64,000 bases of DNA. It comes from an uncultured Bacilli bacterium (GTDB taxonomy: Bacteria; Bacillota_I; Bacilli_A; RF39; UBA660). A program made the position numbers. The stretch spans positions 3,466-67,465 of the forward strand of contig CAJTYF010000003.1 in NCBI GenBank assembly GCA_910583945.1. The letters are read 5' to 3'. This document shows, one piece after another, positions 33,001-39,000 of this stretch; positions within the stretch are counted from its first letter, which is position 1, and each line of letters begins with the position of its first letter.

Positions 33001-36000
33001 CGCACTTACTCCAATCAATTTATTTACTGAGCCTTCTAAGTTGTATTCGCTCATGTCAAGACGAATAAAGTTACTTTTTTTGATGCTTTTTGCGATGGTT
33101 TTAACGGTTTCTGTTTTTCCAACTCCACTAGGACCTGCTAGTAAAATAGCTAATGGTTTCTCTTCCCCATTTAATTTTATCCAGATGTTTTTAAGTAACT
33201 TATTTATTGCTTTTTCTTGACCCACTATTTTTTTCTCTAAATTGCTTTTTATTGATTTAAATATTTCTTTTTTGTTTTCTACTAATGGAATATTCGATTT
33301 TTGTTCTAAGGTTTCGATAATATCTTGATAGGTAATTCGGCTTGCGTTATGCATCATTGTTGCTTGAATTTCTTTTTTCTTTTGATTTTCTTTTTCTTTA
33401 CAAAGTGTTGCTTGTTCGTAATCGTCTTTATAAATATACTCTTTTTTTTGTTTTTTTATTTCTTCTAATTCTTGATTTAATTGATCTAATTTTTCAAAAT
33501 GAATATTTTTAACTTTTTTGCTTGCACATATCATATCTAATAAATCAATAGATTTATCAGGATTACTTTTATTTTTTATATATTTATCTGCTAAATCAAC
33601 AATGTCGTCGATGTTTTCGTTTGATATGGTTAAATGATGATGATTTTCATATTCTTTTTTTATTTTTTTTAATATATTTTTTGTTTTTTCTAAAGAAGGT
33701 TCTTCTACTTGTATTAAATAAAATCTTCTTTCTAAGGCTTTGTCTTTGTAAATGGTTTTATAATATTCATCTGTAGTTGTTGCTCCAATACATTTAATAT
33801 CTCCTCTAGCTAAATAAGGTTTTAATATATCTGCGGCATTAATGGCACCTTCTGCTCCTCCAGCATTAATCATGGTATGAATTTCATCTATAAAAAGAAT
33901 AATATTTTTATTTTCTTTTACTTCTTTTATTATTTTATTTAATCTTTCTTCAAATTCTCCACGATATTTTGTTCCAGCTACTAAAGCTCCCATTTCTAAC
34001 ATAACAATTGTTTTGTTTTCTAATTCAGTGGGGACAATATTGTTATTAATTCTTCTAGCTAATTCTTCTACTATCGCTGTTTTACCAACACCTGCTTTTC
34101 CAATAAGAAGAGGATTACTTTTTTTCTTACGGAGTAAAGCTTCGATTACAAGTGCTATTTCTTCTTCTCTTCCCACAACACGTTCAGAATTCGATACATT
34201 TTTATTAAGATTATTTCCTATTTCCATAAGTTCTAATTTATTTTTAGAATTTTTTACTAAGCTCATTTTAAATTCTTCATATAAAGCATCCAAATCAATC
34301 TCTAATCCAATCATAATTCTTATGGCAATTCCTTCTCCTTCTTCTAAAAGAGCTAAAAATAAATGTCTTTCAGTGACTTCTCCATTATTATTATCTATTG
34401 CGTCTTCTGTTGCAGTTTCAATGATTCTTCTTAATAAGGGCGTATACAAATTTAATTCACTTTCTTTACTGGATTCTCCAACTATACTCACTAATTCATT
34501 TTTAAATAATTCAAAGGTTAAATCATATATTTTTAATTTTTTACTTACTTCATTTTCATGATTTAAAAGAGCTAGCATTAAGTGTTCTGTTCCTACGTAA
34601 GGGTGTTTTAAGCTTTTACGAAAGTTTTCTGCTTCTTTAAAAATTTCTGCTATTTGTAATCCATAATTATCAAACATAATATCCTCCTTTTACATTCTAT
34701 GTCTATACTGTTTATTTTATAAGATTTTTATTCAAACGAATAGGCTTATTTTTTATTCTTTTATGCTATAAATTGTAATAAATTTTCCTTTCCATGTTTC
34801 GGATAATAACACAGGAATATAAAGATTACAAATGGCAGATTTTGGTAATTCATCGTACAAATAAAAAAATTATTTAATAGATTTTGATAATTTATTAAAT
34901 AATTGTTTACATTTACTTTTAATTTAGATATAAATCATTTTTATATAGATTTCTTTTTTTGAATAAATCTAATCTATCAAAAATCTTGGACGGATGCCAA
35001 AAACAGTACTTACTGAAGCTTTATTAGAAAAACCTGGTCCAGCATCACCGTAGCCTCCTACATAAGAAAAATGTTCAATAGTTGCAACTCCTTTCAGCCA
35101 ATAACCAAATCTTTTATTTCCATTACTATTAATATATTCAGGTTTGAGTTGAAATATCGCATAGTGCTTATTATCAATTCCTATATCCATAAAACTCGCT
35201 GAGGAAGTAGTTGTTCCATAAACATTTATTTCACTCATCAAATCTATTTTTCTGGTATACCATGCCCAATCATCTGTTGCACCTTTTAACCTTCCTCCAC
35301 TTTGATTTATGACTTCTTTATTAATATGATTAGAAAGTACATTTCTGTATTCAAGAATATGATTTCCAAAAGTTTTTCCTATTATTCCATCTTCTGCTAC
35401 TAAACTCGGTAATGTTTCTGTAGCCATTTTGCTATTAGCATATCCGCCTTCTGTTGTATCTGTATCATTCATTGATGCGTTCATTAAGGGTTTTGCGGGT
35501 ATAATCGTGGCATGATGTTTCGTAAGCGGTGTATCTCCTGTATATAAATAATTATCAATATCTGCGATTAACCATGTCACTTCATTCGCTATGATATAAT
35601 CACCGACATAAATGTCTTCAAAACTTCCGTTTGATATTCGTGTATATAAACTTCCATCATTATAATACTCAGTGATATCTTTTCCTCGATAGGTGTTTCG
35701 ATGTAATGCTTTTCCTGCTTCAATGTATTTATTATATTCTTCTTGTGATAAACCTGAGGTAAAACTTACATTACATTTTGATTCACTGCTTACATTATTT
35801 AATACTAAATTCCAATTGTTATAATCCCATTCCCCAAACGTTCCATTTGTACAGTGCACATTTGTTTTATATAAGCCTCTTTCTGGAATACTTTCGCTTT
35901 TTTTATCATCAATGACGACAGAAAGCATTTTAATATCATAACCAAAATCTGGGATTCTTCCTTTTAATACATTAAAACTTTTCTTTTCTTCATAAAACGC

Positions 36001-39000
36001 AAACGTTTTATATAACGTGATACTTCCTATTATTAACAAGATTCCTACTATAGGATAAACCATTTTCTTATTCCTTTTGACTCCAGTAAACCTTTTTAGT
36101 TGGTTATTAGTTTCTAATAACCCCCCCCCCTTCTTAAATTTAATCTTTTTCATTTTCTTTTTTCCTTCCTTATTAAATTTATTTCATAACCAAACAAAGT
36201 CTTTTACCTTATTTGTAATTCAATTATATCCACACCAGCATAATTTATCAACATTAAAATAAAACTATTTACATAATCAATGCTATCTTTAGTTTATCAA
36301 TAATAATTTAAAAATTTTGTCATATTAAATTGTTTTCTTTTCATTATGAAATTCTTAATCGCATAATTAGACAATTTTAAAAGGATACATTTTTTGTTTA
36401 TGAGAGAATTGTTTTGGTGATAAATTTGATAAATATTGGTGAGCGTATTCGTTTTATAAGAGAAACTTATGACTTAAGTCAAAAAGAATTGGCATCAATA
36501 TTTGGTATTGAAAAGTCTTCTATTTCACATTTTGAAAAAAATGATCGGATTATTCCTATTGAACATTTGATTAGTTTAAGTGATTATTTAAACTTATCTA
36601 TTGACTATGTTCTAGCTTAACTGAAATAAAAAAATATAAGGACCTAGATTCTGGCGTTGATTTAAAAAAAATGGCAGAAAGTGTAAAAAATATTTGCCGA
36701 ACCAATCATTTAACTAATTTAGCTTTAGCAACGATTATTCATTCTTGCGAATCAAATATAAGAAACTATAAAAATGGAAAATACCTTATTTTAATAACAT
36801 TTCTTATAGAACTTCATTTAAAATTCAATTATTCTATCGATTGGATTCTAGGAAAAACCTCTAATAAGTATATTACAAAGAAATTAATTGAAGTTTAATT
36901 TCTTTTTTCAACAAAAAAAATTAGTTTTTAAACTAATTCTAATTTTACTTCTAAGGCATCGTCGCCTTTTCTTTCTTTTAATTTAATAATTCTAGTGTAC
37001 CCACCATTACGAGTTTCGTAACGTGTTGCTAGTTCATTAAAAACTTTATCAACACATTCTTTATTGTTATAAACAAAAGCAAGTGCTTTTCTACGAGAAA
37101 CTAGTGTTCCACGTTTTCCATAAGTTATTAAACGATCTACAAATTTTCTAACTTCTTTTGCTTTTTCTTCTGTAGTAATAATACTTTCATGAATAATTAC
37201 GTCTGCTGCTTGTCCGGCAAATACACTATGTCTTTGTCTTGTTTCTCTACCAATTTTTCTATACGCCATAATAATCCTCCTTAATCTCGAAATTTAAGTC
37301 CCATTTCAACAACTTTATCTAAGACTTCTTTTAATGATTTTTTCCCTAAGTTACGTATTTTTGTAACTTCAACTTCTCTTTTTGAAATTAAATCTTGAAC
37401 CGTATGAATACCAGCTCTTTTTAAACAGTTATATGCTCTAACTGAAAATTCGATTTCTTCAATTGGTGTTTCTAATGTTTTCGTTATGGTATCTACTTTT
37501 TTCTCTGCCATTAATCCTGAAATATCACTTATCGCATTTAAATCTGCTACAATATTAAAATGTTCAATTAAAATTTTTGCTGATAATGCCATACATTCTT
37601 CTGGAGTAATGCTTCCATTTGTATTAATACGCATAATCAGTTTATCATAATTTTCATTATGACCTACACGCGCATTTTCGACTTCGTATGCTACTTTTTC
37701 TACGGGTGAATATAAAGAATCGATTGCTATGACTCCAACTTTTTTGGTGTCTAATTTTGTTTGATTTTCTTTAGCGTCTACGTAGCCTTTTCCATTTGAT
37801 ACGGTCATTTCCATATTAATTTTTCCACCCTCGACTAGATTACAAATTATTAACTCTTTATTTATAACTTCTAAATCGGGGTCACATTCTATATCTCCAG
37901 CAGTGACTGGTCCTGGTGTTGATTTATTTATATGAATCACTTTATCTTCTTCAGTATGATTTTTAAGTACCACACTCTTTAAATTTAAGATAATACTAGT
38001 CACATCTTCATAAACGCCTTCTATTTTTTGAAATTCATGTAATACGCCATCTATTTTTACGCTAGTAATGGCACATCCTGGTAAACTGGATAACATGACA
38101 CGTCTTAAAGCGTTTCCTATTGTTGTTCCGAATCCTCTTTCTAATGGTTCTAATTCAAATGTTGCATAATGAGAATCGGAAGCATATTCTGTTATTTTGT
38201 ATTCTGGTTTTTCAAATTTAATCATATTATTTCTCCCTTTCGATCATTAATTTCTAGGACGTTTTGGTGGTCTACATCCATTGTGAGGTACTGGTGTGTC
38301 ATCAATGATACTTGTTACTTCAATACCAGCTCCTTGAATAGAACGAATTGCATTTTCTCTACCAGATCCTAAACCTTTAACGTGTACTTCAACTTTTTTT
38401 ACCCCCGCATCAGCAGCAGCTTTTGCACAAGCCTCAGCACTCATTCCAGCAGCATAAGGTGTTTTCTTTTTGCTTCCCTTATAACCGATTGTTCCCGCAG
38501 ATGCCCAAGTAATGACATTCCCATTTTTTTCTGAAATGGTTACGATTGTATTATTATAGTTTGAATGAATATGAGCCACTGCTTCAGGAATGTTTTTCTT
38601 AACTTTTCTTTTTCTTCTGTTATATGCCATAGTTTACCTCCTACTTACCTACTTTTTTCTTATTTGCTACTACTTTACCTTTACCTTTACGAGTACGTGC
38701 ATTTCTACTTGTTCTTTGTCCTCTTACGGGTAAACCTTTTTTATGTCTTATTCCTTGATAGCAATTAATTTCCATTTTATTTTTAATAGACATTTGTACA
38801 TCACGACGAAGATCTCCTTCAACGTCGTATTTATCTACTTCTTTACGAAGAGCTGTGATTTCACTGTCTGTTAAATCTTTAATTTTTTTAGTTGAATCGA
38901 CTTTAGCATCGTTACAGATTGTTAATGCTAAGCTTCTTCCAATTCCATAAATTGCTGTTAATCCAATACATACATGTTTTTCATTTGGTAGTTCAATATT

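Follow-up and report, generated by a model that had tools for sequence, protein, structure and literature searches.

Do the closely related membrane-anchored proteins that recur along a 64-kb stretch of the genome of an uncultured Bacilli bacterium (contig CAJTYF010000003.1, 29.8% GC; the whole 64,000 nucleotides analyzed are called the window here) form a repertoire of surface proteins that is switched and varied? An earlier note, made from the sequence alone, had proposed that they do, and had rightly located five paralogues, which we recovered by listing open reading frames (ORFs) and by self-BLAST of the window; all are on the minus strand and are named c1 to c5 in the order of their coordinates (Table 1). 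Working from consensus assemblies and from sequence and structure computation, we consider it likely that the window holds five members of a phase- and antigen-variable contingency multigene family. The interpretation is supported by length changes in a poly-G tract, mosaicism among the copies, a patch of apparent gene conversion, turnover of whole cassettes and a localized elevation of the ratio of nonsynonymous to synonymous change (dN/dS). The two findings that would speak for an ordinary gene family were not made: the copies match no enzyme family, and their loci are unstable across relatives.

The poly-G tract is a feature that the earlier account of the locus had overlooked. Runs of ten guanines (G10) in c2 and c4 are the only G or C homopolymers of at least six nucleotides in the window; both encode Gly3 at codons 9–11, and GGG makes up 10% of the Gly codons in 26 housekeeping ORFs of the window. 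In c1 and c3 the tract position is occupied by TGGGG, 5 nt shorter. Independent assemblies of the same strain differ here. The c2 tract is G10 in the window and in GCA_949841435.1 and G11 in the ENA assembly ERZ17813367, where the gene is called from Met31, while the c4 tract is G10 in the window and in ERZ17762178 and G9 in ERZ17813367. In both cases the change of one nucleotide in the tract is the sole indel in the stretch compared, namely 6,198 bp for c2 (L098) and 4,836 bp for c4 (L003). Likewise, in sister strains (flanks 96–97% identical), the copy after spo0A has G10 in four assemblies and G9 in one. In each of the two wrong frames, a stop follows the tract at once (TAT TAG, AAC TAA). 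The run accordingly has the hallmarks of a switching simple sequence repeat (SSR), in that it lies in the 5' coding region and is far longer than composition predicts, differs in length between close strains or samples with a shift of the frame, and is kept across homologues while the flanks diverge, with the limit that 77 of the 120 closest homologues are tractless. An origin of the tracts or of their length differences in sequencing or assembly error comes to mind since homopolymers are error-prone and the data are mostly short-read metagenome assemblies, but it is extremely unlikely: the tracts encode in-frame Gly3 between conserved flanks, assemblies from three sources (ENA, NCBI and Logan), made from mouse, rabbit and other samples, show them again at homologous positions, and more than 11 kb of compared sequence contain no other indel save one. 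That one is a T7/T8 run at 59286, in the gap-pgk intergenic region, seen between L106 and the window.

The family is found widely in gut genomes. A protein search returned 394 relatives from gut metagenomes and metagenome-assembled genomes (MAGs), all of them without a functional name ('hypothetical'), and a scan of species-representative genomes confirmed 139 loci; these lie in about eight MAGs labelled uncultured 'Bacilli/Tenericutes bacterium' (from rabbit, mouse and some unstated sources), with more than 30 copies in one rabbit MAG and at least 10–14 in two others. Eighty of these loci were kept. Across 408 kb of related loci there are 68 G runs of at least seven nucleotides, nearly all on the sense strand at the 5' end of a family gene. 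In our census, 43 copies have a G10 tract that is out of frame with the upstream ATG led by a Shine-Dalgarno sequence (SD), a frame that G9 or G12 would restore, and these OFF copies keep uninterrupted downstream ORFs of ~350–420 aa; four copies with G9 are in frame behind an AGGAGG-type SD (L031, L044, L065, L071). The tract occupies three positions in the family, namely the cytoplasmic tail (the window type), the transmembrane (TM) helix itself (...LGGGILVY...) and a site further upstream in the tail; the sequences flanking these positions are unrelated to one another, and a pure G9–G11 run is kept in more than 60 copies. The same tract leaves its mark on database annotation: among the 120 closest proteins, 33 start with 'MGGG...', the ATG being fused to the run, seven start with 'M.WGGGI...', a start that gene callers wrongly choose when the tract is OFF, and three read through the tract from an upstream ATG. 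In the window, the frames of c3, where the tract is lost, and of c5, whose G10 tract (read in L003/L004) is in frame solely from the tract-fused ATG, are open only from an ATG without SD.

Genes outside the family in the rabbit and mouse MAGs also carry such tracts (G9 at L028:2685, G10 at L021:2942, ATG-G10 at L042:313); one encodes a multi-pass membrane protein resembling by eye a GT39/ArnT-type glycosyltransferase, and the other two encode a GNAT-acetyltransferase-like protein and a TM-anchored 466-aa protein. These related organisms may thus carry a wider poly-G phasome.

Directly behind the tract, the window-type copies share a 35-nt element (TTATTAGAAACTAATAACCAACTAGAAAGGTTTAC) that keeps 99% identity among 12 distinct copies, which come from several genomes and belong to two ectodomain subfamilies. 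It is the same in c1, c3 and c4 and in L003, L005, L086 and L087, and the blocks beside it drop to ~80% and then to 40–60% identity. The AUAACCAA of the element is predicted to pair with the conserved part of the leader in a helix between whose strands the SD, ATG and tract would lie, and the 123-nt RNA from leader to element has a fold z of −4.8. The element could act in translational control, stimulate slippage or frameshifting, or serve as a handle for recombination. Its invariance, along with the near-uniform G10 of the OFF copies, keeps alive the alternative that the tract is decoded and not switched, with RNA-polymerase slippage or programmed frameshifting giving a steady low amount of full-length protein from G10, so that the tract would set the level of expression. 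Such decoding would fit OFF copies that lie exactly one base from frame, and the hairpin and the leader pairing of the element could assist it. Classical −1 frameshift stimulators, however, sit 5–9 nt downstream of the slippery site, whereas this hairpin begins immediately after the run; the tracts at the other two positions, in rabbit-MAG copies, are followed by varying sequence; and the stops in both wrong frames fit an OFF design. The length of the tract, moreover, does differ at the DNA level between near-identical strains. On balance we regard decoding as unlikely, and favor a tract that switches.

The copies also show signs of reshuffling. Identity among the five, taken in sliding windows, is mosaic, with c3 and c4 identical at alignment columns 480–660 and 58–85% identical elsewhere, and with c1, c2 and c3 identical over part of the leader. 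When L089 (sample ERZ17762178) is compared with the window over 6,429 bp, all 37 substitutions fall at 55581–55713 within c3, a patch of 133 bp whose L089 version is 90% like c2; c4 is unchanged between both samples. Since this patch alone differs between the strains and equals c4 in the window, c4 itself being unchanged, we interpret it as a recent segmental gene conversion with the pseudogene c4 as the probable donor, a single event whose direction is read from the sequences. It represents a segmental, non-reciprocal transfer, probably from a non-expressed into an expressible copy, the step that defines antigenic variation by gene conversion with silent cassettes (pilE/pilS, vlsE and MgPa type).

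Comparing the loci across strains further revealed that strains can differ in the number and presence of copies even where the flanking proteins are identical. At least four samples with an identical 718-aa ClpC lack the c2 cassette and have a 347-bp spacer instead, and sister strains have a pair of tract-bearing copies behind spo0A, the window having the tractless c3 alone there. One of these two copies (L086a/L088a) has the promoter, leader, tail, TM and tract of the window-type module joined to a different lectin-like ectodomain ending in ...VRPIVIL..., which suggests that the 5' switch module can pass from one ectodomain family to another. The apparent 36-bp direct repeat that flanks the c2 insertion is an ambiguous alignment of the AT-rich spacer and gives no ground for claiming a target-site duplication. 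Beside c2, a divergent gene for an XRE-type helix-turn-helix (HTH) protein (36414–36898, plus strand) is split into ORFs of 68 and 75 aa, and strains without the c2 cassette (L095–L097, L100) have a single 160-aa HTH gene at that place; the HTH-side flank of c2 is ~90–95% identical, as against 98.8% on the clpC side. Sister strains also have an extra 169-aa ORF between gap and pgk, with no Pfam match (L086:950–1459, L088:929–1438, L090, L091, L092), which is absent from the window, where a 288-bp spacer occupies 59001–59288.

What the cassettes encode can be narrowed down, even though the earlier note could assign no known domain family. An AlphaFold2 model of the c2 protein (40-sequence alignment; pLDDT 70.7) has a TM helix at residues 32–54, a small beta-sandwich with two conserved Cys at 77–133, and then helices and a C-terminal domain that is globular. 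The hydrophobic segment IVGILLIIGSITLYKTFAFYEE contains no Cys and is not followed by one that could form a lipobox, the first Cys being residue 101. Scans of the copies against Pfam, NCBIfam, PHROGs and PADLOC gave nothing above threshold; below it there are a weak C-terminal match to phrog_21980 and a weak match over the TM region to the mycoplasma family NF045993 (E = 0.0075). Foldseek found no match in the PDB and 20 matches at E <= 1e-3 among the BFVD viral models, several of them named 'DUF6273' or 'Receptor Binding Protein'. A precomputed match to PF19789 (DUF6273) exists for one homologue (P0069), distant relatives score 20 bits, and the fold is C-type-lectin-like, resembling solved or predicted DUF6273 domains. 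DUF6273 has been described as a C-lectin-like receptor-binding domain and a target of diversity-generating retroelements (DGRs) in gut phages (PMC10743442; bioRxiv 10.1101/2024.10.15.618418). A DUF6273/C-type-lectin-like fold can thus be assigned from the sub-threshold Pfam scores, the Foldseek matches to viral models and homology to phage proteins.

A profile search of 1.84 billion representatives yielded 4,078 clusters at E <= 1e-3 and 1,239 at E <= 1e-30, with the full architecture in only about the top ten; in the remaining clusters the last ~240 profile residues match the C-termini of proteins of 270–1,488 aa, some with phage tail-fibre repeats. With tblastn against phage genomes, the domain shows 29–36% identity over at least 91% of its length to ORF23 of Lactobacillus phage JCL1032 ('tail fiber protein; possibly associated in host specificity'), to proteins of two L. 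helveticus phages and, at 36% identity, to a protein that Acutalibacter phage Fontainebleau encodes immediately upstream of a reverse transcriptase (RT). The Fontainebleau element is a DGR, because 16 of the 19 substitutions between its variable region (VR) and template repeat (TR), a pair of 94 nt with 80% identity, fall at template adenines. Its VR aligns with c2 residues ~356–391, which are the entropy maximum of our family. The same segment stands out in codon evolution: over 470 paralogue pairs, dN/dS is 0.93 in the hypervariable segment versus 0.10–0.38 elsewhere (54 bona fide copies plus c2 and c3, leaving out the L086a/L088a subfamily and a frameshifted copy). We rejected the family itself as a DGR target: the window has no extra copy of the 3' region that could act as template repeat, a crude regular-expression search of 611 kb of window and loci (whole genomes were not searched) found no RT motif, and the 3' end has no excess conservation of the kind expected of an initiation of mutagenic homing (IMH) site (pS 0.45, ordinary).

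Given this ancestry, the copies might instead be domesticated or cargo phage receptor-binding genes that act against phages, through receptor masking, superinfection exclusion or decoys, with their variation tracking phage pressure. Such a role would agree with the homology of the ectodomain to tail-fibre tips and DGR targets, the tail-fibre repeats of distant relatives, the weak match of phrog_21980 to the C-terminus and the polymorphic presence or absence of the cassettes. We nevertheless judge it quite improbable: all neighbors of the five copies are housekeeping genes, with no phage structural, integrase or lysis gene among them, nothing matches in PADLOC, and a TM anchor, a promoter of its own and scattering over the chromosome are traits of a cellular gene. 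It also departs from a contingency family in the selective agent only, and not in the mechanism.

The layout of the window bears out much of what had been claimed of the copies and corrects the rest. Their insertion sites are indeed unrelated: c1 adjoins hpf/csp (a look-up through this hpf neighbor found no match), c2 is upstream of clpC, c3 is in the gap-pgk-tpi...gpmI cluster, with spo0A on one side and an SLT gene on the other, and c4 and c5 form a tandem pair upstream of TGS/PRK-gap genes. All copies have the basic N-tail, single TM helix, conserved first half and more divergent second half that had been described, with 80–100% identity per 60-nt window over the first ~600 nt and 75–82% overall versus c2. 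The supposedly invariant C-terminus is a shared end that is only near-invariant, G(I/V/L)RP(R/F)FL(I/L)(D/G). Three copies are intact (c2, c3 and c5, the last being a 387-aa gene in other assemblies), as opposed to the four thought complete. In c1, 5 bp deleted within a GAAAAGAAAAG repeat near 11730 shift the frame, the frame of the first ATG is likewise wrong, and TGGGG stands in place of the tract; c4 has an in-frame stop at 62332–62334 and an in-frame deletion near 62175 that removes the conserved YWLKNVV. The SD-led ATG of c3 at 56088 is out of frame.

Such damage could be read as plain decay, with frameshifts, stops and deletions reflecting ordinary pseudogenization of redundant paralogues in reduced genomes or imperfect MAGs and no adaptive switching. 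Indeed, c1 and c4 are true pseudogenes, the C-terminus of L086b is frameshifted, the tract is lost in c1 and c3, and half of the related copies abut contig ends (a contig end lies less than 500 nt upstream of the 5' end of the family gene in 40 of the 80 loci kept, L005–L084). Decay remains a very improbable account of the family as a whole, since every one of the 43 OFF copies keeps its long ORF, the dN/dS outside the variable segment denotes purifying selection, the pure run persists at three positions although the GGG codon is rare, and the same tracts occur in independent assemblies from different projects. Three contigs with an identical spo0A (L092–L094) also end within the leader.

Table 1. 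Coordinates of the family copies and associated elements (window positions unless a locus is named).
Feature	Position	Strand	Remarks
c1	10682-11892	minus	pseudogene
c2	34969-36153	minus	intact, 394 aa; sole window copy in frame with the SD-led ATG (ON at G10)
c3	54912-56088	minus	intact 384-aa ORF from internal SD-less ATG at 56066; tract lost (TGGGG)
c4	62077-63228	minus	pseudogene
c5	63355 to beyond 64000	minus	3' part, open to the window edge; 5' end outside
c1 promoter-like site, TTGTTT-17-TATAAT	11962-11990	minus	same block before c3, nearly the same before c4
c2 promoter-like site, TTGATA-17-TATAAT	36223-36251	minus	11/12 matches, best in region
c3 promoter-like site, TTGTTT-17-TATAAT	56158-56186	minus	
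c2 leader segment with conserved UUGGUUAU	36186-36207	minus	complementary to the post-tract element
c2 SD, AAGGAAGG	36164-36171	minus	10 nt before the ATG
c2 poly-G tract	36121-36130	minus	G10 (C10 on plus strand), codons 9-11, encodes KGGGLLE; candidate slipped-strand switch
c2 invariant 35-nt element	36086-36120	minus	adjoins the tract on its 3' side; has stops for both OFF frames; predicted hairpin
c2 TM helix	35992-36060	minus	aa 32-54, behind Lys/Arg-rich N-tail
c2 C-type-lectin-like/DUF6273-like ectodomain	34972-35751	minus	aa ~135-394; homologous to phage tail-fibre C-terminal domains
c2 hypervariable segment	34999-35103	minus	aa 351-385, just before the invariant GxRPRFLI; aligns with phage DGR VR
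c3 gene-conversion patch	55522-55742	minus	221-nt run identical to c4 62654-62874
c4 poly-G tract	63195-63204	minus	G10 (C10 on plus strand); ATG of 'AAATG' fused to the run
Variant-ectodomain gene	L086:4421-5551, L088:4399-5550		ectodomain end ...MPVRPIVILKAG...

The upstream regions required similar revision. In place of a common leader of ~190 bp we find a shared block of ~110 nt in c1, c3 and c4 and of ~75 nt in c2, the homology with c2 beginning 75 nt upstream of its ATG; a longer unit is partly supported by the c2 segment missing from empty-site strains, which begins ~150–185 nt before the ATG. TATAAT is common to the promoter-like sites, as had been noted, but a good −35 box is present only in c2, with TTGTTT in c1, c3 and c4, and the ribosome-binding site of c4 (AAAGGAAAA) deviates from that of the other copies. 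Every copy, pseudogenes included, has its own promoter-like site, leader and SD, which does not fit a dedicated single expression site fed by promoterless donor cassettes. The shared promoter, which had been taken as a sign of variation, is not what makes the system switchable. We also rejected an invertible promoter, having found only weak AT-rich inverted repeats near the leaders and none that flank the promoter in the manner of an inverton. The leader is not a known RNA family, because an Rfam scan of the whole window found no match. On the plus strand of the window (1–64000) there are 25,866 T versus 19,081 A, and long ORFs are nearly all on the minus strand, a bias that fits a single replichore with strongly co-oriented genes, like those of other low-GC Firmicutes.

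Several observations weigh against a switched repertoire or loosen parts of it. The 77 homologues without a tract-encoded GGG near the N-terminus, together with the loss of the tract in c1 and c3, make switching a trait of sublineages and not of the whole family. The OFF copies are almost all G10 instead of a mixture of G8 and G10, and therefore call for a mutational bias or some other explanation. The 33 'MGGG' proteins, c3 and c5 begin at an SD-less ATG, which is a putative start only. Tract lengths are taken from consensus assemblies, and some of the differences between assemblies could conceivably be consensus errors. Confidence in the structural model is moderate overall and low at the N-tail, between the TM helix and the sandwich (residues 47–74) and in the loops 283–290 and 308–340, and the ectodomain would be surface-exposed going by the predicted TM helix and the positive-inside rule. 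Finally, the gathering score of Pfam DUF6273 (PF19789; 23.5 bits) is not reached: c5 scores 18.1 bits (E = 0.0025), and c1–c4 do not match the model at all.

The most probable reading of the locus, a phase- and antigen-variable family, can be cast as the following mechanism. Each copy is a self-contained cassette with a sigma-70-type promoter, a short conserved leader and an SD, encoding a protein with a predicted basic cytoplasmic tail, one TM helix, a two-cysteine beta-sandwich and a C-type-lectin-like domain. In the tract-bearing copies, whose G9–G11 run falls within the first ~25 codons, slipped-strand mispairing at replication would change the run by one base and shift the frame of the ectodomain relative to the SD-led start, in keeping with the length changes seen between samples; we expect this step to be reversible within a clone. 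In the wrong frame, the stops directly after the tract would abort translation, and, going by the ON/OFF census, a cell would display one or a few of many variants. The repertoire would be renewed by segmental gene conversion with pseudogenes as donors, for which the c3 patch offers one event, and by the gain and loss of whole cassettes observed between strains, and the dN/dS values point to diversifying change in a putative ligand-binding segment just before the invariant GVRPRFLIG. We infer that the role of the proteins is likely the variable binding of host or microbial surface ligands, escape from secretory immunoglobulin A (IgA) or phages, or both.

More tentatively, we entertain a further scenario that we would not yet favor over its negation, in which the receptor-binding tip domain that gut phages diversify by DGRs was taken over by a cellular lineage and hypervariation was rebuilt at the same binding site by wholly different means, namely a repertoire of promoter-bearing cassettes across the genome (up to more than 30), a poly-G translational switch and gene conversion templated by pseudogenes, possibly with a three-state switch and a pairing element. 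The three states may be, at one tract length, a long cytoplasmic tail from the SD-led ATG, at the next, a short tail, probably at a low level, from the run-fused ATG, and OFF, with the pairing of the 35-nt element and the leader potentially being part of the switch.

Contingency multigene families are textbook material in pathogens such as Neisseria, Campylobacter, Helicobacter and mycoplasmas; the papers searched describe none from uncultured spore-formers that live as gut commensals. Closest in logic are the Neisseria opa genes, in which CTCTT repeats in the signal-peptide-coding region allow independent switching and paralogues recombine. As here, dispersed promoter-bearing paralogues each have their frame set by an SSR in the 5' coding region and recombination is mosaic, and a subset is displayed, as we propose for the present family; unlike here, the repeat is a pentamer and the product an outer-membrane beta-barrel, as opposed to a G run and a single-pass lectin-like protein, and the host is a Gram-negative pathogen as opposed to uncultured spore-forming gut Bacilli, with no kinship in sequence or fold. 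In tract chemistry the closest are the poly-G loci of Campylobacter, which are mostly single genes for surface-glycan modification, flagellar glycosylation or restriction-modification. The C. jejuni phasome (PMC6321876) resembles our system in its ~30% GC, its coding G8–G11 tracts that act as switch and its similar modal G9/G10. Unlike our system, it has no set of more than 30 adhesin-like paralogues that share a 5' module. In phylogenetic neighborhood the closest are the variable surface families of mycoplasmas, some of which switch by homopolymers. Vlp, Vsa and Vpma (for the last, PMC2268961) and the poly-A-switched Vaa of M. hominis are likewise large variable surface families with a conserved 5' module and variable ectodomains, from a related part of the tree, our family's MAGs being labelled Bacilli/Tenericutes. 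Those proteins, however, are lipobox lipoproteins, in contrast to a TM helix without Cys lipobox, and they vary mostly through promoter poly-A tracts or site-specific inversion, whereas we found no repeats of an invertible promoter.

In fold and variable site, the closest proteins are DGR targets such as Mtd of a Bordetella phage, TvpA of T. denticola, the tentaclins of gut phages and the Fontainebleau protein, which have the same fold, detectable homology and the same invariant C-terminal RPxFL strand with the variable site directly before it; diversity in our family would arise from paralogue number, gene conversion and SSR switching, and not from adenine mutagenesis. The earlier statement that such systems are not described in spore-forming Firmicutes is too broad in view of swrA of B. 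subtilis, which has a switching poly-A tract. In Thomasclavelia ramosa, the ThomasA protein has an N-terminal DUF6273 (PDB 9qa6) as an accessory domain of a sortase-anchored M64 metallopeptidase, to which no function was assigned (PMC12402451); in our family, by contrast, the DUF6273-like domain is the whole ectodomain, without a peptidase. In Bifidobacterium breve, replication slippage in a G tract turns a pilus ON and OFF (PMC9187656), which is likewise a surface structure switched by a G tract in a Gram-positive gut commensal, but it involves two pilus clusters of a high-GC actinobacterium, with no multigene repertoire or gene conversion. In our literature searches we met no account of the family, or of any multigene surface family of uncultured gut Bacilli that is switched by an SSR. 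The mechanism proposed is familiar; what is new is the family, its lineage, its scale, and the replacement of DGR mutagenesis by SSR switching and gene conversion at the same site.

The tracts and the shared 5' modules break short-read assemblies and mislead gene callers into 'MGGG...' and 'MFWGGG...' starts, and the family is consequently mis-annotated in a systematic way in MAG catalogues. The binding site of a single fold has been subjected to two strategies of diversification, by DGRs in phages and by SSRs and gene conversion in cells, so that function may be transferable between the phage and cellular proteins. For the organisms themselves, a small clade of Bacilli from mouse, rabbit and other guts devotes dozens of genes to a switchable lectin-like repertoire, which implies strong and fluctuating selection at the cell surface, be it by secretory IgA, phages or changing glycan ligands.

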